DNA from: an uncultured Burkholderiales bacterium
GTDB taxonomy: Bacteria; Pseudomonadota; Gammaproteobacteria; Burkholderiales; REEB80
Assembly (NCBI GenBank): GCA_964473355.1
Contig: CAYYOS010000002.1
Coordinates: 1 to 50,843 of the forward strand
Length of the DNA: 50,843 nt
Direction: 5' to 3'
Below are positions 13,321 through 40,795 of the stretch, in pieces. The position numbers and the translations under genes were made by a program. Numbering within the stretch: the stretch's first letter is position 1; each line of letters starts with the position of its first letter. The notes under the pieces were generated by a model. The model had not been told where the DNA came from and did not search any database. It saw only the letters and a list, made by a program, of their open reading frames with translations.

Positions 13321-14609
13321 TAGGGCTCCAGCGAACAAGTGCGGAATCCGGCAAAAATATCCCTGCGCTCCGGCGTGTAAAAATTTCTCCAAGTGTTACG
13401 AATTAATTTGTAAGCCGTGGCAAAACTGCCGCCACGCAAAACTTTATGGGTGCCAAACCAAGGCGCAGAATATTCTTTATACGGGTCGATAATAAAACCC
13501 GGGTAAGGTTGAAAAGTACTGGCCGTCCACTCCCAAACATTTCCCAGCATTTGCCTACAACCACTGGCGCTATCTCCGAGCGCGTGAGCAAAAACTGGAA
13601 CCGGTTGATTTAACAAACCACCCAGGTTGGCAACGCGCGCGTCAGGTAGAGTTTCTCCCCACGGATAGCGGCGTTTGTTGTTAACGTGCGGATCCAGGGC
13701 GGCAGCTGTCTCCCATTCCGCTTCGGTGGGCAATCGGCGCTTTGCCCAACGGCAATACGCATCAGCTTCAAACCAATTCACGTGTATGACGGGTGCGTGC
13801 AAAGCCAGTGGGGTGATTAGGTCGAACACGCGCTGCTGCCAGTTTGGCCCGTCTTTTAACCAGTACGCAGGCGCGACAGTGTTTTCCTGTAGACGCCACC
13901 TCCATCCCTGCGGAGACCACAAGTCCGCCCTGGTATAGCCATTGTCTTCGACAAAGTTAACAAATTCTTCATTGGTTACGGGCGTGCGCGCAATAGCAAA
14001 AGGCGCCAACTCAATTTCATGCGCCCACTTTTCATTATCGAAAACAAAGTCGTTAGATTTCGTCGCGCCCAATAGAAATCTTTTTCTGGGGAATGTTGCA
14101 TCCCCCGCACAGCTACTTGGCGATGACGCGACGATATTCTGCGCTTTCGGGAATGCGTAACCCAGGGTTTGGCGGGTGTAGGTGAAAGCCTCCGCGTGCA
14201 TATCCTCGTGAAAAATCGCGAGCTGCAAAAAATAATCATCCATCGCCTGATGTTTTTTTGCGCTGACTTTTTCTGCAACCTGATTTAAGTACATTAAGGT
14301 CTGCGCCGGGGTAAGCAGAGGCAGATCCCAACGCGACGCGTGAGGAACCGTTGCCGAATTATATAATTCATCCGCGTTTGGAATAATCGATGGCCGCACT
14401 GCCTGGCCTTGCTGCTGGCGCAAGCACCAAAATTCCTGAAACCAGGCCAGGTGACCCAACTCCCACAACGGGGGGTTCACGATGCTTAGCCTAGGACCCA
14501 ACCATTGCGTAGGGGTTAAATCTGCAGTCAAGCTTAAGGTACGCTGCCGGGTTTGGACTAGATCGGCAAGAAGCGTATCGGCATTAATCGAAGAAATAAT
14601 TGCGTCCAT
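13320..14609 (-). CDS. EgtB/SenA-like sulfoxide (or selenoxide) synthase homologue: DinB_2-type N-domain plus FGE-sulfatase (SUMF1) C-domain
   Basis: The N-domain has WELGHLAWFQEFW and FHEDMHAEAF (His-rich DinB-type metal ligands). The C-domain has GWRWRLQ, VNWFEADAYCRWAKRRLPTEAEWE, GNVWEWT and RGGSFAT, typical of the FGE-sulfatase fold. The start was trimmed to MDAIISS (complement of 14607-14609), because the full ORF would leave only 12 nt to the divergent gene. Confidence 0.8.
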   Translation of the reverse strand: MDAIISSINADTLLADLVQTRQRTLSLTADLTPTQWLGPRLSIVNPPLWELGHLAWFQEFWCLRQQQGQAVRPSIIPNADELYNSATVPHASRWDLPLLTPAQTLMYLNQVAEKVSAKKHQAMDDYFLQLAIFHEDMHAEAFTYTRQTLGYAFPKAQNIVASSPSSCAGDATFPRKRFLLGATKSNDFVFDNEKWAHEIELAPFAIARTPVTNEEFVNFVEDNGYTRADLWSPQGWRWRLQENTVAPAYWLKDGPNWQQRVFDLITPLALHAPVIHVNWFEADAYCRWAKRRLPTEAEWETAAALDPHVNNKRRYPWGETLPDARVANLGGLLNQPVPVFAHALGDSASGCRQMLGNVWEWTASTFQPYPGFIIDPYKEYSAPWFGTHKVLRGGSFATAYKLIRNTWRNFYTPERRDIFAGFRTCSLEP

Positions 14610-14756
14610 AGAGGGTTTTTTGTTTCGGAGGAATATTTTGACACAAAGATTTAGGCGAGTCCTAAGAGATTGCCGGAGGGACGGCCAGTCCATTTTGACT
14701 ATTTTGTTATGGGTATATGATGGTAGGATGTAAGAAGCAAGCAACGGGGCTAGCGC

Positions 14757-17700
14757 TTGGCAGGTACCTACAATCTCTGGTTAGTAACTCTATCGATCAT
14801 CGTCGCGGTTTTCGCGTCGTATGTGGCGCTTGATTTGGCGTCTCGCGTTATCGCTGCAAACAAAAAAGCATTCTTGTGGTTGGCCAGCGCTGCCGTATCC
14901 TTGGGGGTTGGCATCTGGTCCGTGCATTTCATCGGAATGCTGGCTTTTCACCTACCGATTTCAGTGGCCTACGCTCTTGCGCTCACATTATTAGCGTTGT
15001 TAACCGCGATATTGGCAGCAGCCTTAGCTTTCTATCTGGTTAGCGGGCTTACGTCACGCTGGCCGCGATTTGTTTGGGGAGGAATCGTATTGGGCTTAGG
15101 GATAGCCGCCACGCAGTTTATTGGTGTGGTGGCAATGCAAATGCACCCGCCTATAAAGTATGATTTCAGGCTCTTAGGTTTCTCCGTCCTCATTGCGGTA
15201 GTTGCTTCCGTTATCGCGTTGTGGAACGCGTTCCATTTGCGTTCGGAAAACCACTCCCCTAGAGTTTGGAAAAAGACTTGGTATGCAATAGTGTTGGGTG
15301 CGGGCATCGCGGGCACGCATTACACCGGCATGGCCGCGGGAATTTTTTCCAGTCACAGCGTGTCCCTGGCTAGGGGCTTAGCCATACAGGATATTTGGCT
15401 TGCCATCGGCATTGGCGCTTTTACGCTCATATTGCTCACCGCCACCCTGGTTGCCATTTCAGAAAACCGTCTCAAGCGTTATTTGAGCGAACATCTGCGC
15501 CACGCGCAAATGCTACGCGAATCCCACGATGAATTGGAATTTAGAGTGCAGCGCCGCACGCTCGAATTGGCTCGCGCCAACACAGCGCTGCAAGCCGAGG
15601 TGGCGCAACATGAGCGCACGGAAGAAGCCCTGCGAGCCAGCCAGGAAGAAGCGCGGGGGATTATGGATACCGCGCATGACGCCTATATCGCTATAAATGC
15701 GGATAGCGTTATCGTAGAGTGGAACCGCCGGGCCGAACGCATTTTCGGTTTTTCACGCGCAGAAGCCTTGGGGGAAAATCTCGCAGAAACCCTGATCCCC
15801 TTGCCATACAGAGAGGCACACTATCAGAGAATCAAGCATTTTTTAGACACCGGCGAGGGGCCGACGATTAATGATCGTCGAGAACTCCGCGCGCTGCATC
15901 GGGACGGGCATGAGTTTCCCGTGGAAGTCTCCATATGGCCGACTAAAACGGGCGGGGAGTATAAATTTAATGTGTTCTTGCATGACATCAGCGAGCGTCG
16001 CAGAGCGGTGCAGAGGTTAACTGCCTTAACGGAGGCATCGACAACTTTAGTCGAATCAACCACGCTGGAGGAAGCGGCGCCCAATATTCTCCGCGAAATC
16101 GGCTCGGCCCTCGGGTGGGCGGTAGGCGTTTTTTGGACACTTGATCGGTCGGCGAACTTGTTACGCTGCGCCGCATTCTGGCATGATCCGCATTTTTCTA
16201 GCCCCTACTTTGAGGCGCAAAGCCGCGCTTTAAGTTTTACGCCCGGGGTAGGAGGACCGGGGCGAATTTGGGCTAGCGGAAAACCTCTTTGGATTGCTGA
16301 CATCTGCTTGGATCAAAACTTTCGGCGCTCGATATCCGCGGGGGTAGAGGGGTTGCATGGCTACTTCGGCTTTCCGGTGATTTGCGGCGGTAAACTCTAC
16401 GGGGTGATGGAATTTTTCTCCACCACCAGTCAAGAGCCGCATCCCGAGTTGTTAACAATTACGGATACGCTGGGTAATTTGCTTGGGCAATTTTTAGAGC
16501 GGATTCAAACCAAATCGACGTTGGAGCAAGAGCGGGAATTTCTCGCCGCGCTTTTGGAGAATCTTTCCGATGGCATCGTCGCCTGCGACGAACAAGGAAC
16601 ACTATCCCTTTTTAATCGTGCGACCCGTGAGTTTCATGGCTTAGGGGCAGAGCCCTTACCACCTGAGGCCTGGAGTAAACATTATCACCTCTATCTGGCG
16701 GATGGCAAAACGCCTATGCCCACTAATGATATTCCTTTGTTTCGCGCATTTCGCGGCGAAGTCGTGCGGGATGTCGAGATGGTAGTCATTCCAGAAAACG
16801 CGCCCAGTCGAAACTTAGTTTGCAACGGTCAAGCGTTAATCTCTGCGTCCGGTAAAAAACTCGGCGCGGTGGTTGCAATGCATGACATAACCGAGCGTAA
16901 GCAGGCGGAACAAAAACTGGTGCAGCTGGCGCACTTTGATCCGCTAACGACGCTACCCAATCGTTTGTTGTTTTTTGAATCCCTGCAAAAAGCCTTACTC
17001 CATGCCGACAAACACCAGTGTGTCGTATCGGTGATGTTTCTCGATATTGATCGTTTTAAGGAAGTTAATGATACTTTAGGCCACGCTACCGGTGACGAAT
17101 TATTGCGACAAGTCGGCAGTAGGTTGGTCCAGTGTTTGCGCGTGCGCGATACGGTCGGGCGTTTAGGCGGCGATGAATTTGGCATAATTCTGATTACGCC
17201 CAACGGACCGCAAGGTGCGCAAATCGTCGCTGCGAAAATCGGTGCAGCGCTACAACCCCCGTTTGAAATACATGGCCAAGAAGTAACGGTGACAGCATCG
17301 ATTGGAATAGCTATCTATCCCGACGATGGTTTAGATAGTGATGTATTAATGCGCTATGCCGATACGGCTATGTATGAAGCCAAAGCAATGGGCAAAGATA
17401 CATTCCGTTTTTATAAAGCAGAAATGAACGCCCACGCGTTGCAAAAACTAGAGTTGGAAAATGCCTTACGCAAAGCGCTGGCAAACAATGAATTTGTTTT
17501 ACATTACCAACCGAAAATTCAAATAGATTCAGGTGAATGGGCCGGAGTCGAGGCGTTATTACGCTGGCATCGGCCTGGGCATGGTTTAGTTTCGCCCGCG
17601 GCCTTCATTCCTTTGTTGGAAGAAACAGGGCTGATCGTTCCGGTAGGTGCTTGGGTGATTAGCACAGCCTGTAAGCAGATGGCAGATTGGCGGCGGGCCG

Positions 17701-18269
17701 GTGCGGGTTTGATTCGGGTGGCCGTGAATGTATCTGGTAAGCAATTCCTAGAAGATGGGCTGATAACCACGGCAACCAACGCCATGCGGGAACATAGAAT
17801 CGGCGTGGGCTTGTTAGAAATGGAAATAACCGAAAGTTCTTTAATGAAGGATGCGGACAGAACCCATCGGATGTTGAAAGAACTGAACGCGCTGGGCATT
17901 TCAATTGCGATCGACGATTTTGGTACTGGCTATTCTAGCCTTGCGTATCTTAGCCGGTTTTGGATTGACAAGCTTAAAATTGATATCGCCTTCATACGCA
18001 ATGTGACGACCAATTCAGACAACGCCGCCATCACTATCGCAATTATTGGCATGGCACACAATTTAAAGCTCAGCGTGGTTGCTGAAGGCGTGGAAACGCT
18101 GGAGCAGTTGGAATTTCTGCGTGCTCACCATTGCGACGAAATTCAAGGCTACTTGCTCTCTAAACCCTTGCCGCCGACAGAGGTGATGATGCGTATTAGT
18201 GAGCCTTTCGTTTTTCCTTCGATTTATGCGGCCGATTCGAAGCCGTCGTCCGCGTGGAAGAACAACTAA
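14757..18269 (+). CDS. Multidomain c-di-GMP signalling protein: MHYT membrane sensor, coiled coil, PAS, GAF, PAS, GGDEF, EAL
   Basis: 1170 aa with a TTG start. The N-terminus has about 7 TM helices with MHYT-type repeats (VHFIGMLAF, GTHYTGMAA). Two PAS-like segments flank a GAF-like segment (WALDRSANLL...GYFGFPV...GVMEF). There is an intact I-site plus GGDEF (RVRDTVGRLGGDEF; GGDEF at 17166-17180). EAL-domain motifs are present (EALLRW, EITE, DDFGTGYSS, EGVE, QGY). Confidence 0.9.
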   Translation: MAGTYNLWLVTLSIIVAVFASYVALDLASRVIAANKKAFLWLASAAVSLGVGIWSVHFIGMLAFHLPISVAYALALTLLALLTAILAAALAFYLVSGLTSRWPRFVWGGIVLGLGIAATQFIGVVAMQMHPPIKYDFRLLGFSVLIAVVASVIALWNAFHLRSENHSPRVWKKTWYAIVLGAGIAGTHYTGMAAGIFSSHSVSLARGLAIQDIWLAIGIGAFTLILLTATLVAISENRLKRYLSEHLRHAQMLRESHDELEFRVQRRTLELARANTALQAEVAQHERTEEALRASQEEARGIMDTAHDAYIAINADSVIVEWNRRAERIFGFSRAEALGENLAETLIPLPYREAHYQRIKHFLDTGEGPTINDRRELRALHRDGHEFPVEVSIWPTKTGGEYKFNVFLHDISERRRAVQRLTALTEASTTLVESTTLEEAAPNILREIGSALGWAVGVFWTLDRSANLLRCAAFWHDPHFSSPYFEAQSRALSFTPGVGGPGRIWASGKPLWIADICLDQNFRRSISAGVEGLHGYFGFPVICGGKLYGVMEFFSTTSQEPHPELLTITDTLGNLLGQFLERIQTKSTLEQEREFLAALLENLSDGIVACDEQGTLSLFNRATREFHGLGAEPLPPEAWSKHYHLYLADGKTPMPTNDIPLFRAFRGEVVRDVEMVVIPENAPSRNLVCNGQALISASGKKLGAVVAMHDITERKQAEQKLVQLAHFDPLTTLPNRLLFFESLQKALLHADKHQCVVSVMFLDIDRFKEVNDTLGHATGDELLRQVGSRLVQCLRVRDTVGRLGGDEFGIILITPNGPQGAQIVAAKIGAALQPPFEIHGQEVTVTASIGIAIYPDDGLDSDVLMRYADTAMYEAKAMGKDTFRFYKAEMNAHALQKLELENALRKALANNEFVLHYQPKIQIDSGEWAGVEALLRWHRPGHGLVSPAAFIPLLEETGLIVPVGAWVISTACKQMADWRRAGAGLIRVAVNVSGKQFLEDGLITTATNAMREHRIGVGLLEMEITESSLMKDADRTHRMLKELNALGISIAIDDFGTGYSSLAYLSRFWIDKLKIDIAFIRNVTTNSDNAAITIAIIGMAHNLKLSVVAEGVETLEQLEFLRAHHCDEIQGYLLSKPLPPTEVMMRISEPFVFPSIYAADSKPSSAWKNN

Positions 18270-19963
18270 AACTCCATACTGCGGGCGCCGCGGAGTTCTC
18301 ATTAGCCATTGCCGGCGTGGGGAGCCGCAGCTATGCGTTTATTATTGACTGGCATATCCGTTTTATTTTAGCGCTGGCATGGGTGCTGATCGTGGCTTTG
18401 GTCGTCAGCATGATGAGTCCGGAAGCTCGATTTTTTGAAGGCTTTTTTTCCGCGTTGTGGAAACACCCGAAGATAACTTGGATTGGCGCCGCGCTAATTT
18501 ATCTGGCTTATCATCCATTGCTCGAAGTGCTTATGAGCGGGCGCACCCCGGGAAAGCGTATGGCGGGCGTCCGCATCGTTTCTATAACCGGGCAAACACC
18601 CACTGTCGGCGCGTTGCTAATCCGCAACGTATTTAGGCTCATCGATTCACTCCCACTTTTTTACATTCTGGGGTTAGGGGTAGCGCTTTTTAACCAACGA
18701 AACGTAAGGATAGGTGACATCGCCGCGGGCACATTGCTTGTTTTCGAAAATAAAACCGCCCATATCAAATCCCAGCTTACGACGCACGTTGGACAAGCCG
18801 ACCTAGAATTGTTAAATGATATTGTTGAACGTTGGCCAAGCTTAGGGCGTGCCGCTCGACAACGCTTGGCCCTGAAGTATCTAGAGAAAACAGGAGAAGT
18901 TTTAACAACTGCGGAAGAAACCGATGAACGTGTTCTCCACGCTAGACTAAAACATATCCTTACTATCAGTAAAAGTGATCAGCCGGCACCGACTGCGCTG
19001 GTAACCTGGCTAAAATCAAGGCAGGCAATTTGGGAAAATTTAAGAAGCTTGCTGAAGCTAGAGCATGCTACTGGGGCGCTCAAAGTGGAGGAAGCAAAGG
19101 GGCTCATCCGGGGGTTTCGTGGTCTGCTCCGCGACGTATCGCTAGCGCGCAGCACCATACCCTCGAGTCGACTAACCGGCCAGTTGGAAGCTTTGTTAGT
19201 GGAGACGCACGATACCATTTACCGAGCGCCCAGCAATCTTCGTCAAGACTTAATGCAACTGATGCGTAAAGAAGTGCCGGAAGTGGTAGCGAGTTTACGC
19301 GGTGCGATTGTGGCCACAAGCGGGCTATTTTTAGGTAGTGCCATCGCGGGATGGCTATTAGTTTATACCTACCCAGAGTTAGCTAGTTTATTCGCCTCCG
19401 AGGAAATGATTAATACCGTGCAACGGGGCGAACTTTGGACGGATGGCCTGCTAAATATTATGCCGTCCGCATGGCTATCACTTTCCATTATGACCAATAA
19501 TATTTTGGTCACACTGTTTGCCTTTGTGTTGGGTGCGCTGTATGGATTAGGAACAATATATATCGTGACCCTAAACGGTTTGATGCTAGGCGCTGCCTTT
19601 GCTTTTACCGCCCAGTATGATCTGGACGGCAAACTACTCAAGTTTATTGTCGCTCATGGCGTAGTAGAACTGAGCATAGTTTGCCTTGCCGCCGCGGCCG
19701 ATATTCAATTAGGGGAGGCGTTAGCTCGCCCCGGTAAATGCACTACTCGCGCCGAGGCATTCCGTGCCGCAGTGGCGCGTGCCGGAAAATTACTTCCTGT
19801 GTGCGCGCTATTTTTGGTGGGCGCAGGTTTAATAGAAGGCTATATTTCTCCCAATGACAATTATGACTTAAAGGTTCGCATAGCCATAGGCATAGGCTAC
19901 GGCATATTGATGTGGTTAGTTTTGAGTGGCAGAATTTGGCGGGGCAAGATAAGCGTAGTTTAG
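18254..19963 (+). CDS. Membrane protein fusing an N-terminal RDD domain to a C-terminal SpoIIM-like (stage II sporulation protein M family) domain
   Basis: 569 aa. The N-terminal part (GSRSYAFIIDWHIRFILA...RTPGKRMAGVRIV...IGDIAAGTLLV) fits the RDD pattern. The C-terminal part (NNILVTLFAFVLGALYGLGTIYIVTLNGLMLGA...AHGVVELSIVCLAAAA) fits the SpoIIM pattern. The GTG start overlaps the preceding gene by 16 nt; an alternative GTG lies about 57 nt downstream. Confidence 0.7.
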   Translation: MEEQLKLHTAGAAEFSLAIAGVGSRSYAFIIDWHIRFILALAWVLIVALVVSMMSPEARFFEGFFSALWKHPKITWIGAALIYLAYHPLLEVLMSGRTPGKRMAGVRIVSITGQTPTVGALLIRNVFRLIDSLPLFYILGLGVALFNQRNVRIGDIAAGTLLVFENKTAHIKSQLTTHVGQADLELLNDIVERWPSLGRAARQRLALKYLEKTGEVLTTAEETDERVLHARLKHILTISKSDQPAPTALVTWLKSRQAIWENLRSLLKLEHATGALKVEEAKGLIRGFRGLLRDVSLARSTIPSSRLTGQLEALLVETHDTIYRAPSNLRQDLMQLMRKEVPEVVASLRGAIVATSGLFLGSAIAGWLLVYTYPELASLFASEEMINTVQRGELWTDGLLNIMPSAWLSLSIMTNNILVTLFAFVLGALYGLGTIYIVTLNGLMLGAAFAFTAQYDLDGKLLKFIVAHGVVELSIVCLAAAADIQLGEALARPGKCTTRAEAFRAAVARAGKLLPVCALFLVGAGLIEGYISPNDNYDLKVRIAIGIGYGILMWLVLSGRIWRGKISVV

Positions 19964-20055
19964 TTTTGTGCAGGGCTCCTGCATTGGCCCTCCAATAATC
20001 CATCGTTTTTCAGTGCGCTACTGTCCTGAAATAATCTCGTTTACAACACTCCTTA

Positions 20056-20139
20056 GTCTTAGGCAATGCTCCCTAAGACGTTCCGTCGCTTTATGTGCCC
20101 TGTATGTTCACTCTTGTCATTCCCGCGAGAAGCGGGAAT
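20056..20139. repeat. Two stem-loop modules in the gap downstream of the RDD-SpoIIM gene
   Basis: gtcttagg-N8-cctaagac (20056-20079) and attcccgc-gagaa-gcgggaat (20119-20139). The second belongs to the widespread 'gtcattcccgcg...gcgggaatccag' type of proteobacterial intergenic hairpin. A related tcccg-tctgg-cggga-tccag module occurs inside the 7525-7770 element (about 7683-7702). Confidence 0.55.
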
Positions 20140-20159
20140 CCAGGTTTTGAATATTAACT

Positions 20160-20530
20160 TGCCGGGGGTAGCCCGGCAGCTAGTGCGCCCTGGCGCGTCG
20201 CACGAGGGACCCGCGTTAGCGGGACCCTAGCAGCGGCAGGGATGCCAGGCGACTGCGCTCTCATTCCGCCCCCGCATCCCGCTTTCACGTCGCACCTTCC
20301 TTAACGGAAGGCACTGCTCCTACTCAAGCGGTCGCCCTTCTTTTGTTTGGCCAAAAAGAAAGTAATCAAAGAAAAGGCCACCCTCCCCATCACGCTATGT
20401 TCTGTTCCCGCTCACCAAGCCCAAGCGGCTCTCGCAACTCAACCTCGGCGCTAAAGCGCCTTAAGGATTCGAGCAGTGCTCGCCGACATCCCTGGCTTGG
20501 TTCGCTGCTCGGCGGTGAAGAAAGGGACCC
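20160..20530. repeat. Copy A of a ~375-bp GC-rich hairpin-mosaic repeat (inverted relative to copy B)
   Basis: The reverse complement aligns end to end with 41750-42124. Long perfect blocks include ggggagggtggccttttctttgattactttctttttggcc and ggtgcgacgtgaaagcgggatgcggggg. It lies in the convergent gap between the RDD-SpoIIM and DUF58 genes. ORFs on it are not conserved between copies. Confidence 0.85.
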
Positions 20531-20687
20531 TTAAAAAACAAAAGGCAAAATCAAAACCCACGCCCACTGAACCATAAGTCTGCTTGTTACATACGTCTTA
20601 TTTATCCTAAAGGGCGCTACTCCCTGCCCCTGACTCCAAAGCCATAAAAGCCTCTCTTGCGGGATCGATGGCAAGACTTTAGCGCGC

Positions 20688-21983
20688 TTATATCTGCCGC
20701 CTTTGACGTAGTTTTTCGTAATACGCGAGCACCGCGCTGTCGAGAGCGTCGGGTCGTTCAAATACCACCGCGGCGCCTAATCGTACTAATTGCATCATGA
20801 CGCCGTGGGCTTCTTGCATGAGGATCTCGGCGGCCAATGTTTCATAGGGATCTAGCCAACGCTCGGCGGGTTTTTCGCGCATGGCTTCCACTTCCTCATC
20901 TATGAGTGCTGCAATTAAGGGCAAATGCTGAGGGGCGATAAGCTTTGTGGCTTTGGTGAGTTGATCGGCGCGCTCGCCTTCATCTAAATCTGTAAAGAGA
21001 GGGACTAACGTGCGGTGTTTGACTAGGCGGCGGATTTCCAGCATGGCAGCGAGCGGGTTAGACTCTTGGCTTGTCACGCGTATGCGCTCCAGTGCCCCGC
21101 GTATTTGCATGAGACCCGCGATACCTTTTACCGGCGTTATAATTTCCTGCGGCTTATCCGCAAACACAACAATGCCCACGCGATCACCATTGTGAATGGC
21201 TTTTTCCGCCAGCCGCGCGGCGATATTAATATAATGCTGGACGCGGGTTAGCGGACCCGCTTCCAGGTTTGAACTTCTCCCGGCATCGATGGCCAGTATC
21301 AACTCGAGTTGTTGGTCTTCGCTAAAAACTCGCACCGTGTGCCGTCCGCTTCGTGCGCTCGCCTTCCAGTCGATCGCGCGTAGGGGGTCGCCCGCGCGGT
21401 AGTCGCGCAAACTAATAAGCTCTAGCCCCGCTCCTCTGGGTCGCATGGCGATCTGCCCCCCTACTATGACTCCGCTGGCTCGCTCCTGCGAAGATAGCTG
21501 GGAGGGTGTCACGCGTCCGCCCCCTGGTAGCGTAACTTTGCGTGGCCACCACGCCAATCCAAAGTATCCCAGCACCCGCGTATAAATTGGTGGCCAAGCG
21601 AAGTTTCCCAATGCTTTGGGGGATGCGGTAAATTTCTGGTGATATTTTTCTCCAGCGGCAATCACGGAACGTATGGGATGATCGAGGCCAACCATCCCTT
21701 TGGGGCAGCCAGGCTGGGCCTCGATGATTAAAACGCGTTCTTCCATATTGCTGATACTAAGATCCATGCTGAAGGATTGCCCCAGCGCGACCTGGGCTTC
21801 GTGCGAGCGCCGCATGGCAAATTTATGGCGCCTTGCCAATCCACCCTCGGCAATGAAAGCGAGGAGCAATAGCACCGTAGGAAAGCGCCATGCGCCGCTA
21901 AGTTCGCCCCCATACCAAAGACCGGCAATGCCCAGCAAGGCGATGGCGCCTGCCAATAAAAAAGCTAAACCTGTAAGATTCAT
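20688..21983 (-). CDS. DUF58-family protein (vWA-like partner of MoxR ATPases), two N-terminal TM helices
   Basis: 431 aa. The core RDYRAGDPLRAIDWKASARSGRHTVRVFSEDQQLELILAIDAGRSS is the DUF58 signature. It is preceded by two hydrophobic helices. Its start overlaps the MoxR stop by 4 nt. Confidence 0.85.
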   Translation of the reverse strand: MNLTGLAFLLAGAIALLGIAGLWYGGELSGAWRFPTVLLLLAFIAEGGLARRHKFAMRRSHEAQVALGQSFSMDLSISNMEERVLIIEAQPGCPKGMVGLDHPIRSVIAAGEKYHQKFTASPKALGNFAWPPIYTRVLGYFGLAWWPRKVTLPGGGRVTPSQLSSQERASGVIVGGQIAMRPRGAGLELISLRDYRAGDPLRAIDWKASARSGRHTVRVFSEDQQLELILAIDAGRSSNLEAGPLTRVQHYINIAARLAEKAIHNGDRVGIVVFADKPQEIITPVKGIAGLMQIRGALERIRVTSQESNPLAAMLEIRRLVKHRTLVPLFTDLDEGERADQLTKATKLIAPQHLPLIAALIDEEVEAMREKPAERWLDPYETLAAEILMQEAHGVMMQLVRLGAAVVFERPDALDSAVLAYYEKLRQRRQI

Positions 21984-22933
21984 TCGCGTGGCACATTAAC
22001 CTGATTCAATATCGATTCGGTTAATTGTTTTCTATCGACCCCGGCCAACATGGCGTCCGCGGTTAAAATTAAGCGATGCGGCATGACCAGCGGCGCAACA
22101 GATTTAACATCATCCGGCGTAACAAATGCTCGATCCTGCAGCGCTGCTTCAATGCGTGCACAACGCATTAGCGCTAAGGCACCGCGAGTAGATAAGCCCA
22201 AACTGGCGTGGGCATGGACCCGGCTAGCTGCTGCGATATCGGTTACATATTGGTAGATACCATCCGATACATGCACACCAGAAATATGCTCCCTAGCCTT
22301 AAGAAGATCGAGGTCTTCTGTAATTTCGCGTGCAACACCACGATCGGCGTGACCGCCGCCCGGCAAATCGTAGGCGCGCAAAACCGCTTGTTCCATACTA
22401 GGCTCGGGATAGCTCATGTCGAGACGCAGTAAAAAACGATCCAGTTGTGATTCCGGTAAGGGAAAGGTGCCTTCGAACTCATGGGGGTTTTGCGTGGCGA
22501 TGACAAAGAAATTTGGCGGCAGTGGATACGTTTGGCGGTCTATGGAAATGCCGCCCTCCTCCATTGCCTGCAGTAAGGCGGATTGGGTTTTGGGTCCGGT
22601 GCGATTAATTTCATCGACAAGGACCACGTCTGCAAATAAGGGACCGGGCAGCAATTCGAATTTGCGGGTCTCGGTGTTATAAACATGAATACCGGTCATG
22701 TCCGACGGCATAAGGTCGGCGGTGCATTGAATGCGCTTAAACTGCCCATTAAGCCTCGCCGCCAAGGATTTTGCCAATAGCGTTTTGCCGATCCCCGGCA
22801 CCCCTTGCAGCAGCACATGTCCCCCGGCTATTAATGCGATACTGATGCCACGGATTATCTCATCTACCCCAAACACCGTTTGGCTTAAATGATGACGTAA
22901 GGTATTGGCAAATTGCTGGGCGGGTGTACTCAT
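21980..22933 (-). CDS. MoxR-family AAA+ ATPase
   Basis: 317 aa. Walker A GVPGIGKT, Walker B VVLVDEINR, and the ATQNPHEFEGTFPLPESQLDRF segment are diagnostic of the MoxR/AAA_3 group. Confidence 0.92.
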   Translation of the reverse strand: MSTPAQQFANTLRHHLSQTVFGVDEIIRGISIALIAGGHVLLQGVPGIGKTLLAKSLAARLNGQFKRIQCTADLMPSDMTGIHVYNTETRKFELLPGPLFADVVLVDEINRTGPKTQSALLQAMEEGGISIDRQTYPLPPNFFVIATQNPHEFEGTFPLPESQLDRFLLRLDMSYPEPSMEQAVLRAYDLPGGGHADRGVAREITEDLDLLKAREHISGVHVSDGIYQYVTDIAAASRVHAHASLGLSTRGALALMRCARIEAALQDRAFVTPDDVKSVAPLVMPHRLILTADAMLAGVDRKQLTESILNQVNVPRE

Positions 22934-24183
22934 GTAAGACTTTTCCTTATGTTGTAAATTAGGCGTGCGAACCGCACTAGCTTGGGTTTAGTGGTAGCTA
23001 GATTAGAATAAATTTGTTGCAGCGCCCCTAAGTCTTGGCGATCCACGCGCGCAACGCCCTGGAGAATTTCCCACACAGGCTCACCGGTTAAGGGCAGGTG
23101 ATAACGTCGCCGCACTTCGTTAAAAAATCGCTTCGCTAGCTCTTTGGCGACGCTGGCGGATGAAAGACGGCGCGCATATAAACCTCCCACGGCTCGCGTG
23201 AAATCCACTGCCCGCGTTCCCTGGGGAAAGACATTGAGCGGCGCGAGCCGATTGCTGCGGCCGACCAAATAAAGCAGCCACAACCCTACCAAAATCAAAA
23301 GCGTATAGTGCAAACGGCGATCTTTGAAAAAAACGTCGGGGTTGTAAAGGTCAGAGACGCCTTGGTGCATATCGTCAAAAATTACTCTACCGCCAGCGAC
23401 GACAGTTGCGCTGATTAGATTGGCAATCAATCGCGCATTGTCTCTATCGCCCAGATTCGCGTTACCTAGCCAATTTCCATAGCGGCTGATCCAGCCGGTT
23501 CCTTGGCCAACTCTAATTTGCCAAAAGGCCGGCGCATCCGTGGCTTCCTCACGAAGTAAGACAAATGCAGTTCGATAACGATCTTCTGCTCGCAACACCA
23601 CATCGCTAACTGCGTTCGCAGCAAGGGTGACCTCGATTTTTTGTACCGATTGAAGAAGAGGTAATGATTGATATGGGCGCAGCGCCAGTTTTTTTGGCTC
23701 GCCGCTAACAAAAATGCGGGGGGTTTTAGCGCTTTTGGCAGCCGGCGTTTTAGGCTTGGTATCCGCAGGCGAAAAATAGAAACCCAAATCAGACAAAACC
23801 GGGTCCATCATCGCGCCTAGCCACTCCGCTTCGCCGCCGTTCATTAGCACCAAAATATTGTTGCCTTCTCGTATCCAATCCAGCAGCACTTCTCTTTCCC
23901 GATCACGCGCCGGCGCAATGCTGGGTAAATGGACGATCAATAGATTTCCGCTTTGCGGCAAGCTGGCGTCTGCTAATAATTCATCGTAACGGTTGCGTAG
24001 GCTTTTGGTCGCCCCGCCACTTTTCTCCAGCCAGCGCTTTAGGCCTAATAAGCCATGGTTGCCATGATCTGTGCTAACCGCGCGCGACGGCGGCGGTTCG
24101 TTGGCTGGAGGCGGGATCAGCAACGTAATGACTAAGTAGAGTGCGAAAATGCCACCCAACAGCGTTATTAGTCTATCTTTCAC
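22930..24183 (-). CDS. DUF4350-like membrane protein
   Basis: 417 aa. N-terminal TM, then a periplasmic-type domain beginning STDHGNHGLLGLKRWLEKSGGATKSL, then a second TM (HYTLLILVGLWLLYLV) and a C-terminal tail. Both the architecture and the position upstream of MoxR match DUF4350 proteins as I recall them. Its start is 45 nt from the upstream gene, and its stop overlaps moxR by 4 nt. Confidence 0.55.
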   Translation of the reverse strand: MKDRLITLLGGIFALYLVITLLIPPPANEPPPSRAVSTDHGNHGLLGLKRWLEKSGGATKSLRNRYDELLADASLPQSGNLLIVHLPSIAPARDREREVLLDWIREGNNILVLMNGGEAEWLGAMMDPVLSDLGFYFSPADTKPKTPAAKSAKTPRIFVSGEPKKLALRPYQSLPLLQSVQKIEVTLAANAVSDVVLRAEDRYRTAFVLLREEATDAPAFWQIRVGQGTGWISRYGNWLGNANLGDRDNARLIANLISATVVAGGRVIFDDMHQGVSDLYNPDVFFKDRRLHYTLLILVGLWLLYLVGRSNRLAPLNVFPQGTRAVDFTRAVGGLYARRLSSASVAKELAKRFFNEVRRRYHLPLTGEPVWEILQGVARVDRQDLGALQQIYSNLATTKPKLVRFARLIYNIRKSLT

Positions 24184-24228
24184 TGTCGCTACATTTATTT
24201 TTCATGGTAACCTCATTAACAAAACCTT

Positions 24229-25179
24229 TCATTTTGCACCCGAATAATTTGCGCCCAGCAGATCACGGCTCTCTTGTAAGAGCGCTTCCATATCTATGGC
24301 GCTCACCTGCCGCCCGCCGTAGAGAATCGGGTCCAGCGTCAAAATAAAATGCTCGAATGCGCTACCGTAGGGTTGCTCGCTGCGCTTAAGGTTTGCGGAA
24401 AGTTCGCGGTTAGTGAGTCCGGCATTTCCGGGCAGGAGCGCGCGCTCAACCAAGACGTAGATGACCAGTTTCAACAACGCTGCGGGCCGTTGTTGTAAGG
24501 GTAGACTTAGCACACCGTCCAGTGTTGGTATTTCTGTTTTTGGCACCGTGGCGCGGAACCCAAATTGCGGACGCGCAAAAAGACGGCTGCGCCATTTAAA
24601 ACTGCCGCCACCCGCGCGCAGCTCGTTTCCTATCACTATCAGCGCTAACAATAAAATTAATCCAATGGCGCCTTTAAACAGTAACTCCGCCAGCCATCGA
24701 GGAGGAACAATTTTTTCCAGAAATTTAATGAGCCAGCTCATATCACCCGTCTGGTCCTGTTGCGCGAGTTTGGCTTGCATCCACTCCTTAAAACGTTGCC
24801 ACCAATCGACCTTGGGTTTTGGGCCAGCGATTAAAGTACTAGCAAGTAACGGTTTTAACCCCGAAAAGTCAAACTGAGTGGTGGCAGGGACAGCCACTTT
24901 CGCAGCGCGCAGCAAGGATTGCAAATCCATAAGCTGATTGAGACTCGTCTCATCACCGATGCTCTCTTGCATCGGCCATGCCTTGCCTTCTTTAGACAGC
25001 GCTGATTTTAGTAATGGGCAAGCTTGACTTAACTTAAACGATTGATTAATGGATGGCGCGCGCGCTTCATCAAACCTAGATTCGATGCAGGCGCCGAGAC
25101 TGGCTTCCAGTGCGACGTTTTCCGCGGCTAAAACACAGGTAGAGAAAATCGCACTAACGGTTAAAACGGTGAAGCGCAT
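24229..25179 (-). CDS. DUF4129-like protein with signal peptide and one internal TM
   Basis: 316 aa. Signal-like N-terminus (MRFTVLTVSAIFSTCVLAAE) and TM (AIGLILLLALIVIGN). The C-terminal segment LTNRELSANLKR...FEHFILTLDPILYGGRQVS resembles the DUF4129 motif (T..E.......F......Y.Y.G). Confidence 0.55.
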   Translation of the reverse strand: MRFTVLTVSAIFSTCVLAAENVALEASLGACIESRFDEARAPSINQSFKLSQACPLLKSALSKEGKAWPMQESIGDETSLNQLMDLQSLLRAAKVAVPATTQFDFSGLKPLLASTLIAGPKPKVDWWQRFKEWMQAKLAQQDQTGDMSWLIKFLEKIVPPRWLAELLFKGAIGLILLLALIVIGNELRAGGGSFKWRSRLFARPQFGFRATVPKTEIPTLDGVLSLPLQQRPAALLKLVIYVLVERALLPGNAGLTNRELSANLKRSEQPYGSAFEHFILTLDPILYGGRQVSAIDMEALLQESRDLLGANYSGAK

Positions 25180-25192
25180 GCCCTAAGGAAAT

Positions 25193-25963
25193 TTAGGAAC
25201 GAGGCGCAAGGCGCGCCTCGAGGTCGTGTCCCTCACTTCTAAGTTTTAGGTCGTGATATTGGACGATCATCACCGAATAAATTAATGGCGTAATAATCGT
25301 GCTGATTACCGCCGCAACTAACTCGGTGATTAGCTTAAACCCAACTGAATCTAAAGCGCCGCCCGTAGCCATAAACACCCCCACGGCGATACCAAATCCC
25401 ATATAGACCACCAATAGCATTATCCAATATACCGATAATACGGTTAAAGTCCGCCACCATTTTCCCCAAACTAAGCGATGACTATGCTTTAACGATTGCA
25501 CCGGCGATTCGTTGTCTAACACAACGCCCGTATACCAAAAGTACAAGCTCACGGATAGAATAATTCCGGGAATAATAAGGAGCACGAAGCCCACCATCAA
25601 AATTAAAACATACAAAATTATTCCTACGATAATAGGCAACAGGGTCTTCGCGCCACGCATTAACGCTTCCGATAGGCTTACAGACCGCGATTCGGCGACA
25701 CCCTGCATTTGATATATAAGGCCCGATACTAAGATAAAATATATAGGGAGGAGCAACACCAACCATATCATTGATTGACGCATGGCGGCACTCGCGGATT
25801 CGAAGTCACCTGACGTTTCGGTCGATAACATGCCGGGAATTGCCATTAAGAGCGCGCTCATAAAAGATAAGAGCAATACTTTCTTAAAGGCGGCGGCATA
25901 CAACTTAAAACTGTGATCCAGGACTTGACCTATGGTTTGAGGCTGATTGGACAGAGTAAACAC
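25193..25963 (-). CDS. YciC/UPF0259-like (GPDPase-membrane-domain-like) polytopic membrane protein
   Basis: 256 aa. The layout is colinear with E. coli YciC: an N-terminal soluble cap, then paired TM hairpins. The central segment LLIIPGIILSVSLYFWYTGVVLDNESPVQSLKHSHRLVWGKWWR aligns with YciC [42 protein letters not shown]. It is the first gene of the MoxR operon. Confidence 0.5.
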   Translation of the reverse strand: MFTLSNQPQTIGQVLDHSFKLYAAAFKKVLLLSFMSALLMAIPGMLSTETSGDFESASAAMRQSMIWLVLLLPIYFILVSGLIYQMQGVAESRSVSLSEALMRGAKTLLPIIVGIILYVLILMVGFVLLIIPGIILSVSLYFWYTGVVLDNESPVQSLKHSHRLVWGKWWRTLTVLSVYWIMLLVVYMGFGIAVGVFMATGGALDSVGFKLITELVAAVISTIITPLIYSVMIVQYHDLKLRSEGHDLEARLAPRS

Positions 25964-26135
25964 GTGACCCCCTTTTTATAAATTTCTGTTGGAATTCCCG
26001 CGCACGCCAGGCTTTTCACCAATATTACCGGCAATAATAAATAATGACAAACCGATGCCAGGGTTGCACTCGGCTCTTGAAGTTTAATAATGAGGATTAC
26101 TGCATCTTTAACCGGTTAGCATTTATAGTAAACGT

Positions 26136-27089
26136 ATGCACATTGCCTTAATCACCCCTGCGCCCCCATTATCTCGCTTAGGTAACCGCAACACGGCGCA
26201 GCGCTGGGCGTTTATGCTTAAAAAGTTGGGCCAGCAGGTCACCATACAACAGGTATGGGACGGTAGCCCCTATGATCTGATGCTTGCCTTGCACGCCAGA
26301 CGTAGTTACGCCTCTATCAAAGAATTTGCACTACGCTTTCCTACTCGACCGTTAATCGTCGCCCTTACGGGCACTGATCTATATCGGGATATTCAAACAG
26401 ATGCCCAGGCTCAGGAATCTTTGCAGTTGGCGCATCAACTGGTAGTTCTGCAAGAATTGGGGCTAGCGGAATTAAGCCCGGAGCTGCGACAAAAGACCAG
26501 GGTGATCTATCAATCCGCTAAGGCGCTAGCCCGCGGGCCTTTTAGAAAACGCAGTTTTGATATTTGTGTTATCGGCCATCTGCGGGATGAAAAAGACCCG
26601 TTCCGCTGCGCGCTGGCGAGTCAGCACCTCCCCTCTTCCTCGAAAATAAAAATTCGCCATATGGGTAAAGCCATGACCGAACTCGCCGAGCAAGAGGCCC
26701 GAGCATTAATGGCGCGCTTACCTCGCTATCGCTGGTATGGCGAATTACCCCAAGCGCGAGTACGACAGGAGTTGGCCCGCTGTCGGCTGATGGTCATTAG
26801 CTCCAAAATGGAAGGCGGTGCGAATGTGGTCAGTGAAGCGTTAAGCGCCGATGTGCCGATCATCGCTTCGAATATTTCAGGCAATGTCGGCATGTTGGGC
26901 CCCGATTACCTGGGCTACTATCCTTTGGGTAACGAAACAGCCTTAGCAACCGCGCTAAGCCGCGCAGAATCAGATAAAAAATTTTATGAGCAGCTACAAA
27001 ACCAGTGTCGCCTGCGAGCAAAACGAATTACGCCAGAGCAAGAATTGGCGGGATTAAAAAAAATAATTTCGTTTAGGAAGGTGCAATAA
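26136..27089 (+). CDS. Short GT-B glycosyltransferase, possibly TIGR04348/SenB-like
   Basis: 317 aa. The C-terminal half has the GT4-type nucleotide-sugar motif region (KMEGGANVVSEALSADVPIIASNISGNVGML). The N-terminus MHIALITPAPPLSRLGNRNTAQRWAFMLKKLG and the small size resemble my recollection of the TIGR04348 family. The family assignment is not verified. Confidence 0.7.
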   Translation: MHIALITPAPPLSRLGNRNTAQRWAFMLKKLGQQVTIQQVWDGSPYDLMLALHARRSYASIKEFALRFPTRPLIVALTGTDLYRDIQTDAQAQESLQLAHQLVVLQELGLAELSPELRQKTRVIYQSAKALARGPFRKRSFDICVIGHLRDEKDPFRCALASQHLPSSSKIKIRHMGKAMTELAEQEARALMARLPRYRWYGELPQARVRQELARCRLMVISSKMEGGANVVSEALSADVPIIASNISGNVGMLGPDYLGYYPLGNETALATALSRAESDKKFYEQLQNQCRLRAKRITPEQELAGLKKIISFRKVQ

Positions 27090-27132: not shown

Positions 27133-27576
27133 TTAACTCAGCAAGCCAAGCACAACCGTGATCAGCCCCAGCATCAGATTAACCCCGACCAAAATACGAA
27201 TTTTTGCTAATGCCTGTGCGCCCGCCGGCCAGTTTTGCGCTGTCACCGCTACTGTCAGCCGCACGTAAAGGGCGAAATATACATAGGTAAAAATTCCGGT
27301 CATGGCAAGCCCTGCTATCATCATTAGCCACACGCTAAGCGGCACGACGTTAAACCCGCCGATGCGCCAGATCATATAGAATCCGCTCGTCAGAATAAGG
27401 GCGACGGCTAACCACACCCAGGTGAAAAAAATCTGAAAGGTCGCACGCCACAAGCTCAGGCGCTCGGGGGGTTGAAGCGTTTTCACCGCTGCGGGGCGCA
27501 GGGCAACGTAAGCGAAGAACATGCCGCCCACCCAAACCACCACACCGAATAAGTGCGCGGCTAGGGCGAAACTCAT
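27133..27576 (-). CDS. Small 4-TM integral membrane protein, CopD-family-like
   Basis: 147 aa with four hydrophobic helices. The N-terminus [23 protein letters not shown] resembles short CopD-family proteins. Its start overlaps the rnhB stop (ATGA). Confidence 0.4.
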
Positions 27577-28154
27577 GATAGGCTCGCAACTACCATGCGT
27601 TCATGCACGATGCGCACCGGCGCAAAGGTTTTACGATGAATATCGCAACAGCCGAATTCCTCTAGCGCACGCAAGTGTTCTGGCGTGCCATAGCCTTTGT
27701 GTCGATCAAACCCATAATTGGGATAGCGCGCGTGCAGTTCCACCATATAGGTGTCACGTTCGGTTTTAGCCAAAATCGAAGCTGCGGATATCTCACGAAT
27801 TTTGGCGTCACCACCAACGACCGCTCGGGAAAAAAATTTAACCTGCGGACAAAATAAGCCATCCACTAAAACCTCTTGTGGCTCAATGTGCAAACTTTCA
27901 ATGGCGCGCTTCATTGCCAATAACGTTGCCTGCAGAATATTTAGGCAGTCTATTTCTTCTACCTCCGCCCGGGCTACGGCCCACGCTACCGCACGCGCTT
28001 TAATACGCTCGGCAAGAATTCTGCGGCGTTCCTCAGGAAGAATTTTTGAATCCGCCAGACCCCGAATCGGGCGGCTTTTATCAAGGATGACGGCCGCAGC
28101 AAACACCGCGCCGGCTAAGGGGCCACGCCCCGCTTCATCCACGCCGCAGATCAT
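27573..28154 (-). CDS. rnhB: Ribonuclease HII
   Basis: 193 aa. The N-terminus [23 protein letters not shown] and DSKIL motifs are diagnostic. It follows lpxB, as in E. coli. Confidence 0.95.
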
Positions 28155-28164
28155 CGCAACCCGC

Positions 28165-29334
28165 TCATGTGCGTAATTTTTTTAAATCGAGCATATTAAT
28201 AATTGCTTCCGCTGCTTTTTGTGCACTATTTTGCCGCAATTCCCGATGCATTTGCGTAAATTTCTTGATTAAATCTTTTTGCAAATCTAAATCAGCTAGC
28301 TGATCTATTAAGGCACACGCTAGACGCTGTGGTGTCGCCTGATTTTGCAAAATCTCGGGCACAATAAATGCATTGGCCAAGATATTAGGTAGGCCGATAT
28401 AGGGCAGTAAGCGTCGAGGCCACATGATCACGGCGGTTAACCAGGGTACCTTATAGGTTATTACCATGGGCCGTTTTAACAGCGCCGCCTCTAATGTAGC
28501 CGTGCCCGAAGCCACTAAGACTACATTGGCCGCAGTCATAGCGAGGCTTGCCTGCCCGCGAATAAGAACGATTTTTAGGCCTTCTGCGCGACAGCGTTTA
28601 ATTGCTTGCACCATTAGGCGCTCGGTTTCTTCACTAACTAAAGGCACTACAAAAATACTCTCGGGATATGTTTTCGCGATCAGTTTGGCGGTGTTTGCAA
28701 ACAATTCGCCATGCATTTGTACCTCGCTTTGCCGGCTTCCCGGCAATAGGGCAAAAATGGTGGCGAAAGAGTCCAATTTTAATTCTTGGCGGGCCAACGA
28801 CCTATCCGGCAACTCCGGAATAACATCCGCCAAAGGATGGCCTACAAAGGTGGCGGGCACGCCGGCCTGATCGTAGAGCGTTTTTTCGAAAGGAAAAACC
28901 AGAAGCATGTGAGAAACAGCACGAGCGATACGCCGGATGCGCTGCCCTCGCCATGCCCAAATGGAAGGGCTGATTAAATGCACCGTGGGGATACCGGCGG
29001 CCTTTAATTTTTCTTCTAGACTTAAATTAAAGTCGGGTGCGTCGATACCGATGAATAGATCCGGTCGATTATTTAGAAAATGGTTTTTTAAATTTTTTCT
29101 GATGCGGAGAATTTCAGGGATGTGGCGCAGCACTTCAACATAACCGCGCACCGCTAATTTTTCCATAGGATAGCGGGCAATAACACCGGCGGCGGCCATT
29201 TTTGGGCCGGCGATGCCCTCAAATTCCATCTTCGGATATAACTGTCGCAACGCCTGCACCAAATGAGCGCCTACCATGTCGCCGGACGCCTCGCCGGCTA
29301 CGATGCCGATTCTTATCGGCACACTATCTCGCAA
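28165..29334 (-). CDS. lpxB: Lipid-A-disaccharide synthase
   Basis: 389 aa. [11 protein letters not shown] start motif, DAPDFNL, and [13 protein letters not shown]. In the lpxA-lpxB-rnhB order. Confidence 0.95.
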
Positions 29335-30094: not shown

Positions 30095-30103
30095 CGCGGG
30101 GAA

Positions 30104-30553: not shown

Positions 30554-30555
30554 TA

Positions 30556-31605: not shown

Positions 31606-31625
31606 TCAGCTTAGGAATAACGCGG

Positions 31626-32129: not shown

Positions 32130-32145
32130 TGTTACTCCTATCCAA

Positions 32146-37783: not shown

Positions 37784-37802
37784 GCCGGATGCCGCTTAAA
37801 AG

Positions 37803-39194: not shown

Positions 39195-40795
<1,601 letters not shown>

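Follow-up and report, generated by a model that had tools for sequence, protein, structure and literature searches.

The question raised by this locus is whether six adjacent genes, nearly all of them for membrane proteins, form a single system, and what such a system might do. The genes lie at positions 18254-25963 of the window, that is, the whole 50,843-nucleotide (nt) stretch of contig CAYYOS010000002.1 (assembly GCA_964473355.1, from an uncultured Burkholderiales bacterium) that was analyzed. Five minus-strand genes, encoding a YciC-like protein, a DUF4129-like protein, a DUF4350 protein, a MoxR ATPase and a DUF58 protein, converge on a plus-strand gene encoding an RDD-SpoIIM fusion protein. 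We found that this membrane set of seven families keeps its composition, and often its order, over at least five phylum-level lineages, and that it includes moxR2 of Mycobacterium tuberculosis and its neighbors. The set is in all likelihood one functional system. As to its nature, we regard the chances as about even that the six genes encode one inner-membrane system built around a MoxR/DUF58 remodeling module.

Composition and layout of the gene set

The six genes are listed with the lengths of their products in amino acids (aa) and with their Pfam scores and cut-offs.

25193-25963, minus strand: YciC-like gene (operon gene 1), 256 aa; UPF0259/YciC 23.7 bits, cut-off 31.4 (below)
24229-25179, minus strand: DUF4129-like gene (operon gene 2), 316 aa; DUF4129 16 bits, cut-off 24.8 (below)
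22930-24183, minus strand: DUF4350 gene (operon gene 3), 417 aa; DUF4350 35.7 bits, cut-off 30.4 (above)
21980-22933, minus strand: MoxR gene (operon gene 4), 317 aa; AAA_3 194.6 bits, cut-off 27 (above); AAA_lid_2 76.5 bits, cut-off 22.7 (above)
20688-21983, minus strand: DUF58 gene (operon gene 5), 431 aa; DUF58 83.8 bits, cut-off 23.4 (above); VWA_2 35 bits, cut-off 27 (above)
18254-19963, plus strand: RDD-SpoIIM fusion gene, convergent, 569 aa, GTG start; RDD 54.2 bits, cut-off 24.1 (above); SpoIIM (PF01944) 97.7 bits, cut-off 26.9 (above)

An earlier reading of the window, made from the sequence only, had described the five minus-strand genes as packed with two 4-nt overlaps and gaps of 13 and 45 nt, and the table of open reading frames (ORFs) reproduced the genes, their coordinates and these junctions exactly. 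Both 4-nt junctions, DUF4350/MoxR and MoxR/DUF58, have the form ATGA, in which the stop overlaps the start; from the coordinates, the two gaps lie at the other junctions. A Shine-Dalgarno sequence, AGGGGG, precedes the GTG start of the first gene. Terminator-like consensus sites within the operon were not commoner than in shuffled sequence, nor was the total count of promoter matches over the region above that of shuffled sequence. The ATGA overlaps, the gene order shared with other loci and the terminator result are indirect evidence that the five minus-strand genes may share a single transcript. In agreement with the same reading, a hydropathy scan found transmembrane (TM) segments or a signal-peptide-like N-terminus in all six products except MoxR.

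The RDD, SpoIIM, DUF58, AAA_3 and DUF4350 assignments of the sequence-only reading were all placed above the Pfam cut-offs by hidden Markov model (HMM) searches, and the convergent gene is an RDD-SpoIIM fusion as proposed. The two families below threshold, DUF4129 and YciC-like, were re-examined on positional orthologues from related loci. The DUF4129 call fell short for the window copy itself, but the family was matched by 47 of the 57 positional orthologues of the gene 2 product (E<=0.05; best 7.5e-9). The gene 1 product likewise scored below the Pfam and NCBIfam cut-offs (YciC equivalog of NCBIfam, 30.4 bits against 227, not accepted), although UPF0259 was found in 40, GPDPase_memb in 24 and DUF7847 in 23 of its 51 orthologues. 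Since the product belongs to this UPF0259/GPDPase_memb/DUF7847 group, it is the GPDPase-membrane-domain protein that the earlier reading had named as a frequent member of such neighborhoods.

Conservation across loci and lineages

A scan of GTDB, with one genome per species, returned 60 loci, which were surveyed with seed-built HMMs run on stop-to-stop ORFs. Nearly all were from uncultured Gammaproteobacteria, including Burkholderiales, Steroidobacteraceae, Woeseiaceae and Granulosicoccaceae, and one was from a Binatia metagenome-assembled genome (MAG). The five operon genes were present in order in every locus with enough flank, and the SpoIIM/RDD pair directly followed DUF58 in about 47 of about 50 informative loci. 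Here, as in the other phyla described below, the genes were thus co-localized and not scattered, as had been expected. When an eighth conserved gene was sought by clustering flanking ORFs, no family was common to more than 7 of 65 loci; the flanking genes are unrelated between loci, indicating that the cluster is self-contained. The same seven families, in the window's order of YciC-like, DUF4129, DUF4350, MoxR and DUF58 and, convergent to these, SpoIIM-like and RDD, were found in three unrelated genomic contexts: a 4.6-Mb genome, a Nitrospira MAG and a Burkholderiales MAG. When 1.84 billion representatives were searched in full with HMMER, 362 proteins passed E<=1e-30 and 2660 passed E<=1e-3, so the family is of moderate size.

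Other phyla were reached when PLSDB records, a number of them in fact chromosomes, were searched by tblastn with the fusion protein and the loci were then examined with Pfam and our own HMMs. It was this query that led to other taxa; a repeated search for other phyla with a DUF4350 profile returned the same proteobacterial subfamily alone, and tblastn of the DUF4350 protein against plasmids gave no match. The following arrangements were found.

Catenovulum adriaticum: RDD, SpoIIM, hypothetical, DUF4350, MoxR, DUF58, on one strand; a BPSS1780/DUF7847 protein lies 2.4 kb off
Paracoccus aminovorans and Rhizobium phaseoli: DUF805, DUF4129 (weak), DUF4350 (weak), MoxR, DUF58, SpoIIM, RDD, overlapping, on one strand
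Nonomuraea gerenzanensis: GPDPase_memb/DUF7847, DUF4129 (44.8 bits), DUF4350 (104 bits), MoxR, DUF58; convergent SpoIIM, divergent RDD
Nocardia farcinica: DUF4129, MoxR, DUF58, then RDD and SpoIIM
Prevotella oral taxon 299: RDD, SpoIIM, two hypotheticals, DUF4350 (83.7 bits), MoxR, DUF58

In Alphaproteobacteria, Alteromonadales, Actinomycetota and Bacteroidota the cluster is therefore found in rearranged or co-directional form, and the versions on a single strand are a strong argument that the convergent units of the window belong together. The actinobacterial neighborhood that the earlier reading had described as having the same order was recovered in Nonomuraea, with the five-gene order and a convergent SpoIIM gene, and the 44.8-bit DUF4129 match of its counterpart aligns to the same region as the window protein. 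Compared as single sequences by hhalign, the "hypothetical" genes of Catenovulum, Paracoccus and Prevotella matched the DUF4129-like/DUF4350 profiles weakly (E 5e-5 to 0.02). The SpoIIM gene of the cluster was matched on 52 Rhizobium plasmids, and the locus was opened in R. phaseoli only.

The same set is found in mycobacteria as Rv3689-Rv3695 (MAB_0386c-0392c in M. abscessus/chelonae), comprising a membrane protein, DUF4129, DUF4350, moxR2, DUF58, SpoIIM-like and RDD genes, and the window likewise has all seven families adjacent. The Rv3689-Rv3695, Nonomuraea and Nocardia versions differ from the window in that RDD is a separate gene, divergent from SpoIIM; the actinobacterial proteins show low identity to those of the window, and the DUF4350 profile searches did not reach them. 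A table for M. chelonae lists the same gene set, mapped to Rv3689-Rv3695, with MAB_0386c-0392c all changing expression together (PMC8191103). In M. tuberculosis, Rv3694c (SpoIIM-like) and Rv3695 (RDD) co-immunoprecipitate with the division-site protein Rv0954 (PMC8093794). Rv3691 is required for slow growth, as judged by transposon site hybridization (TraSH), and is induced in slow-growing BCG, and a single-nucleotide variant of Rv3690 was present in one D-cycloserine-resistant double mutant. A SigF-regulated MoxR/DUF58 operon of M. smegmatis, MSMEG_6606-6612, was left aside, as no link to this type of cluster could be made.

Domain architecture, possible mechanism and rival explanations

In the fusion protein, an RDD domain (residues ~20-160) is followed by a cytoplasmic helical linker (~165-347) and a SpoIIM-like domain with six TM segments (~349-558). 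The linker consists of the RDD tail and DUF8413, the latter known from precomputed Pfam matches on orthologues. An AlphaFold2 (AF2) model of the protein (predicted local distance difference test score, pLDDT, 85.8; predicted template modeling score, pTM, 0.73) shows RDD as a small beta-sheet with TM helices, a long helical cytoplasmic region, and SpoIIM as six TM helices; a Foldseek search of this model for a structural match in the PDB found none (best E 0.5). The fusion pointed out in the earlier reading is widespread: among the 120 best homologues, 82 are RDD-SpoIIM fusions of 458-631 aa, always in this domain order, and 38 are stand-alone SpoIIM-like proteins. In most relatives whose loci were opened, RDD and SpoIIM-like genes are separate and overlapping; the fused form is present in the window and its relatives of 81-95% identity, and arose independently elsewhere (e.g., locus L061, which is P0176). 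The fusion is thus common and not special, but it is real and informative as a Rosetta stone, arguing for direct contact between the RDD and SpoIIM families.

Across ten taxa of six lineages, W260, N416, N441, H468-G469-x-x-E472, R499 and E528 are invariant in the SpoIIM part, and R25, D32, Y86, E91, G100-K101, R124, R152 and G154-D155 are kept in the RDD part. The conserved Arg, Asp and Asp of the RDD family correspond to R25, D32 and D155, each invariant in the ten taxa. That invariant polar residues lie within TM helices suggests a part in catalysis, ion binding or conduction and not pure scaffolding; on this ground, the more probable role of the RDD-SpoIIM unit is that of a catalytic or conducting core, not that of a passive scaffold.

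The DUF4350 protein consists of TM1 (2-22), an alpha/beta domain (~46-270), TM2 (289-309) and a five-helix C-terminal domain (325-416). It has 138 database relatives, of which four, from forest-soil metagenomes, are 81-95% identical and the others at most 48%; the best GTDB match is 46% identical, and all homologues listed carry PF14258. An AF2 model based on 113 sequences (pLDDT 88.2) gave as its top PDB matches in Foldseek the GIFT domain of IFT52 (5fms and 5fmr, E 4e-6), and also matched the trimerization domain of GH42 beta-galactosidases. The periplasmic domain thus models as a GIFT-like, class-I-GATase-like fold, in agreement with the HHpred result given for archaeal DUF4350 proteins by Makarova et al. 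2015 (PMC5898192). Invariant residues are G79-N80, G107-N108, N241 and D270-D271-x-H273-x-G275, and the domain closes with the invariant motif VIFDDMHQG. As the invariant residues end about 15 residues before TM2, they are placed at the periplasmic membrane surface.

The MoxR protein is a cytoplasmic AAA+ ATPase of the MoxR type with intact Walker A (GVPGIGKT) and Walker B (VLVDEINR) motifs; G44-T51 and D107-E108 are conserved in at least 90% of 57 orthologues, and the closest solved structure is PDB 2r44 (E 6e-64). It has an adjacent vWA partner, encoded by the DUF58/VWA_2 gene that overlaps the moxR stop codon. In the DUF58 protein, a strongly basic stretch comes after two N-terminal TM segments, which should place its DUF58/vWA domain in the cytoplasm. 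Its metal-ion-dependent adhesion site (MIDAS) motif is non-canonical, D233-A-G235-R236-S-S238 and not DxSxS, and is conserved in at least 90% of 54 orthologues, the conserved residues being D233, G235, R236, S238, T331 and D332. A PDB sequence search gave no homologue of the DUF58 protein and none of the DUF4350 protein.

The YciC-like protein is a polytopic inner-membrane protein with about six TM segments by hydropathy, and has the conserved motif SHxLVWGxWWR and a C-terminal DLKLRxEGxDL; by the positive-inside rule, the motifs and the C-terminal tail are predicted to be cytoplasmic. The DUF4129-like protein is bitopic: its signal peptide is followed by a periplasmic domain of ~145 aa, in which one Cys is near-invariant, then by a TM segment at 166-184 and a cytoplasmic C-terminal DUF4129-like domain. 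The same rule predicts that the DUF58 vWA domain, the DUF4129 domain and the DUF4350 C-terminal domain face the cytoplasm, and that the GIFT-like domain and the Cys-containing N-domain of the DUF4129-like protein face the periplasm. Mutual homology of the DUF4350 C-terminus, DUF4129, DUF8413 and the RDD tail was considered and rejected, with hhalign probabilities of ~1% or less.

vWA proteins serve as adaptors of other MoxR ATPases, as in CbbQ/O, NorQ/D, RavA/ViaA and BchI/D. In the mechanism that we propose, the membrane-anchored DUF58 protein would likewise recruit or tether the MoxR hexamer and act as its substrate adaptor. The candidate substrates would be the cytoplasmic domains of the co-encoded membrane proteins, namely DUF4129, the DUF4350 C-terminal bundle, the RDD tail with DUF8413, and the C-terminal tail of the YciC-like protein. 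ATP-driven remodeling of these would assemble or switch a hetero-oligomeric complex, of which the RDD-SpoIIM unit would be the polytopic core. The output would be on the periplasmic face, where the GIFT-like domain may present its invariant DDxH site by the membrane together with the Cys-containing ectodomain of the DUF4129-like protein. What the analysis itself gives is localization, co-inheritance, fusion and fold; which parts touch, in which direction the system acts and what it does in the envelope we infer from the analogy to other MoxR/vWA pairs. Physiologically, maintenance or remodeling of the cell envelope is the most probable role. A bolder version of this proposal, in which the seven families would be an uncharacterized class of AAA+-powered inner-membrane machine with a MoxR/DUF58 motor, a GIFT/DUF4129/YciC-like assembly and a catalytic or conducting RDD-SpoIIM core, is tentative and clearly less probable than the single-system proposal as such. 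If true, such a machine would have been retained in lineages from Actinomycetota (with M. tuberculosis among them) to Pseudomonadota and Bacteroidota, and its envelope function would be unlike any known secretion, transport or cell-wall system.

Several points weigh against a single envelope system. Two GTDB loci, L029 and L037, have the complete five-gene operon, but over the 7.7 kb downstream of DUF58 they have neither a SpoIIM-like nor an RDD gene. The first gene appears replaceable: in Paracoccus and Rhizobium, one or two DUF805 membrane proteins occupy operon position 1 (L071, 4224-4664; L072, 3533-4616), suggesting that the small polytopic first component can be exchanged, in Alphaproteobacteria for DUF805. 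With a DxGRxS motif in place of the usual MIDAS, the usual acidic-ligand binding mode of the vWA domain may not hold. That MoxR/DUF58 interacts with the other products is a conclusion by analogy, and the envelope role is a guess from localization only; our literature search turned up no experimental study of any gene in a cluster of this kind. The co-varying block in M. chelonae is contiguous and includes glpK and glpF, and could reflect loss of the region and not co-regulation (PMC8191103).

The rival that bears most directly on the unity of the set, namely that the MoxR operon and the RDD/SpoIIM pair are two independent units that are merely adjacent, would account for their opposite strands in the window and for loci L029 and L037. 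It would leave unexplained the adjacency in about 47 of about 50 informative GTDB loci and in six other lineages despite rearrangement, including single-strand overlapping operons, and we consider this already disfavored explanation improbable. An anti-phage or conflict system of the MoxR-vWA type is more improbable still. The PF20030 bpMoxR model does match the ATPase (41.9 bits), but beneath the far stronger AAA_3 match; PADLOC gave generic AAA matches alone, beta-propeller and effector domains were not found, the neighborhood is of a housekeeping kind (an lpx/bam cluster here), and no defense-type neighbor family recurs in the flanks.

The remaining rivals accept the set and assign it another task. 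One is a dedicated system for secretion or surface assembly, whose conduit would consist of the membrane proteins, with the GIFT-like protein as the portion in the periplasm or outside the cell. Such a function is in line with the GIFT fold that Foldseek supports for the modeled DUF4350 domain, with the "secretion or membrane remodeling complex" predicted by Makarova et al. 2015 for archaeal DUF4350 (arCOG01314) with MoxR and vWA, and with the tie drawn there between DUF4350 and GldG of the ABC (ATP-binding cassette) transporter associated with gliding and the type IX secretion system (PMC5898192). However, no cargo candidate, S-layer or Ig-like protein or outer-membrane component is conserved beside the bacterial cluster, and the archaeal partner families (arCOG02884 and others) had no Pfam or own-HMM match in the window or the loci. 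This explanation is unlikely, and to the same degree so is a role as maturation factor, e.g., in metal or cofactor insertion, for a periplasmic or membrane enzyme encoded elsewhere. Maturation has precedents in MoxR/MxaR with MxaS (DUF58) and MxaACKL for methanol dehydrogenase, and in NorQ/NorD for nitric oxide reductase; a MoxR-proper ATPase beside DUF58 is the arrangement of the mxa operon, and the periplasmic D270-D271-x-H273 and the His/Glu in the SpoIIM TM helices could bind metal. Against this stand the lack of a client enzyme conserved within 4 kb in 65 loci and the presence of the system in organisms of very different metabolisms. Somewhat less likely again is that RDD-SpoIIM is a transporter or channel regulated or assembled by the MoxR operon. 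Its invariant polar intramembrane residues (N416, N441, H468, E472 and E528 in the SpoIIM part) and the invariant R25, D32, E91, K101, R152 and D155 of the RDD part would suit such a function, and a Halobacillus RDD protein is reportedly a Na+(Li+,K+)/H+ antiporter; yet the fusion model is unlike any solved transporter in Foldseek, and no solute-binding protein or other transport gene is conserved beside the cluster.

Relation to known systems and surrounding sequence

The single inner-membrane system that we prefer has relatives among described MoxR modules. In Pseudomonas aeruginosa, the genes PA2875, PA2874 and tgpA presumably encode a MoxR protein, a DUF58 protein and TgpA with a terminal DUF4129 domain. 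The three form a co-transcribed unit that ends in a membrane protein with a periplasmic domain, which recalls the putative operon of the window, and tgpA is essential in this organism (PMC3507681). Unlike in the window, the periplasmic module is an active transglutaminase and not a GIFT domain; the paper covers PA2875-PA2872 only and mentions no SpoIIM, RDD or YciC-like partner.

In the Bat (Bacteroides aerotolerance) operon and in mxaRS-ACKL, a MoxR-proper gene is followed by DUF58 and then by membrane proteins acting extracytoplasmically; Bat-type MoxR-DUF58 examples from Borrelia and Riemerella turned up in the literature. The Bat operon differs in having vWA membrane proteins of the BatA/BatB type and the tetratricopeptide-repeat protein BatC, none of which is among the six products by Pfam. 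GldG, like the DUF4350 protein, has a TM-domain-TM layout. The fold of GldG (GldAFG) and of the IFT52 GIFT domain is matched by the periplasmic domain of the window's DUF4350 protein at a sequence identity of only 13-16%, and Pfam ABC_transp_aux weakly matches the Catenovulum homologue. GldAFG has an ABC transporter partner, whereas the window set has none and would be energized, if at all, by its AAA+ ATPase. With SpoIIM of Bacillus subtilis, the scaffold of the SpoIID-SpoIIM-SpoIIP engulfment complex, the fusion protein shares the Pfam SpoIIM domain, but it is not an orthologue: it scored 18.3 bits against a cut-off of 100.2 for the NCBIfam SpoIIM equivalog TIGR02831 (not accepted), has DUF8413 as an additional N-terminal domain and is joined to RDD. 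Neither SpoIID nor SpoIIP families were matched among the six cluster products.

The archaeal DUF4350 sets resemble the window in having a DUF4350 protein with a large extracytoplasmic flavodoxin-/GldG-like domain beside a COG0714 ATPase and vWA, and differ in carrying S-layer or Ig-like proteins; the study also states that SpoIIM homologues adjoin vWA and COG0714 in bacteria, its model for the archaeal set is a prediction and not an experiment, and its main text mentions neither RDD nor DUF4129, nor do the sections consulted mention a YciC-like protein (PMC5898192). The window thus resembles the archaeal DUF4350 set, PA2875-PA2874-tgpA and the Bat/Mxa modules and is a member of none of them. 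The earlier description of the locus as an undescribed system needs to be narrowed, as the neighborhood has already been partly noted (PMC5898192, PMC8191103), although its function is just as uncharacterized, and no paper characterizing the cluster was found in the literature searched. Since the neighborhood was already annotated and partly discussed in 2015, the window is, by composition and order, a further member of a known, functionally uncharacterized kind, the neighborhood of the Rv3689-Rv3695 type, and this copy is itself an unremarkable, ordinary member. Its value lies in the question posed by the conserved set and not in this copy. Cross-phylum invariance points to H468, E472 and E528 in the membrane and to D270, D271 and H273 at the periplasmic face as mutagenesis targets, and cultivable hosts in which genetics is possible are Rhizobium, Paracoccus, Catenovulum, Nonomuraea, Nocardia and Prevotella.

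Three further features adjoin the six genes.

19964-20687: spacer between the convergent stop codons, 725 nt, no ORF of note
25964-26135: divergent intergenic region 5' of the operon, with three sigma-70-like promoter matches on the minus strand (consensus matching)
14757-18269, plus strand: MHYT-PAS-GAF-GGDEF-EAL cyclic di-GMP (c-di-GMP) signaling gene (Pfam; context)

Rfam and tRNA searches of the spacer gave no match. In the close relatives L006 and L008 the spacer measures only 115-183 nt, against 725 nt in the window, where it is enlarged by an inserted repeat of ~400 nt (20143-20536) that makes up most of its length and that these relatives do not have. The repeat has two intergenic copies in the window, at 20143-20536 and, inverted, at 41744-42142, which are 82.7% identical over 404 nt; it gave no Rfam match, its fold z-score (RNA stability) was unremarkable, and no exact match to its 40-nt core was found in JGI metagenome contigs. 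A perfect palindrome, ATTCCCGC-GAGAA-GCGGGAAT, lies at 20119-20139, a few bases 5' of the repeat and beside the first copy only. In Burkholderiales MAGs, the 3' ends of the DUF58 gene and the SpoIIM-like gene, which are convergent, overlap by ~18 nt (e.g., L004, 12254-13549 on the plus and 13532-14533 on the minus strand; also L010, L011, L013 and L022), leaving no space for terminators and implying overlapping antisense transcripts.

At its other end, the start of the fusion gene is overlapped by 16 nt by the 3' end (stop) of the GGDEF-EAL gene, so the fusion gene is possibly not a lone gene. This overlap is kept in the 81-95% identical relatives (L006 and L008), other lineages having different neighbors there, and suggests a lineage-specific c-di-GMP link to regulation of the system.

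Divergent from the operon is a group-1 glycosyltransferase gene (26136-27089, plus strand), conserved at this place only in L006 and L008, whose product barely reaches the Pfam "GT4-conflict" cut-off (26.4 bits against 26). Farther right, 27133-41603 on the minus strand encodes a CopD-like protein, rnhB, lpxB, lpxA, fabZ, lpxD, skp, bamA and rseP, and, judged from ORF sizes, the lpx/bam block probably continues with dxr, cdsA, uppS, frr, pyrH, tsf and rpsB. The block at 27133-41603 is standard proteobacterial and fits a beta/gamma-proteobacterial host. Upstream of the GGDEF-EAL gene and divergent from it, a DinB_2 plus FGE-sulfatase protein (13320-14744, minus strand) has the architecture of an EgtB/OvoA-like sulfoxide synthase.

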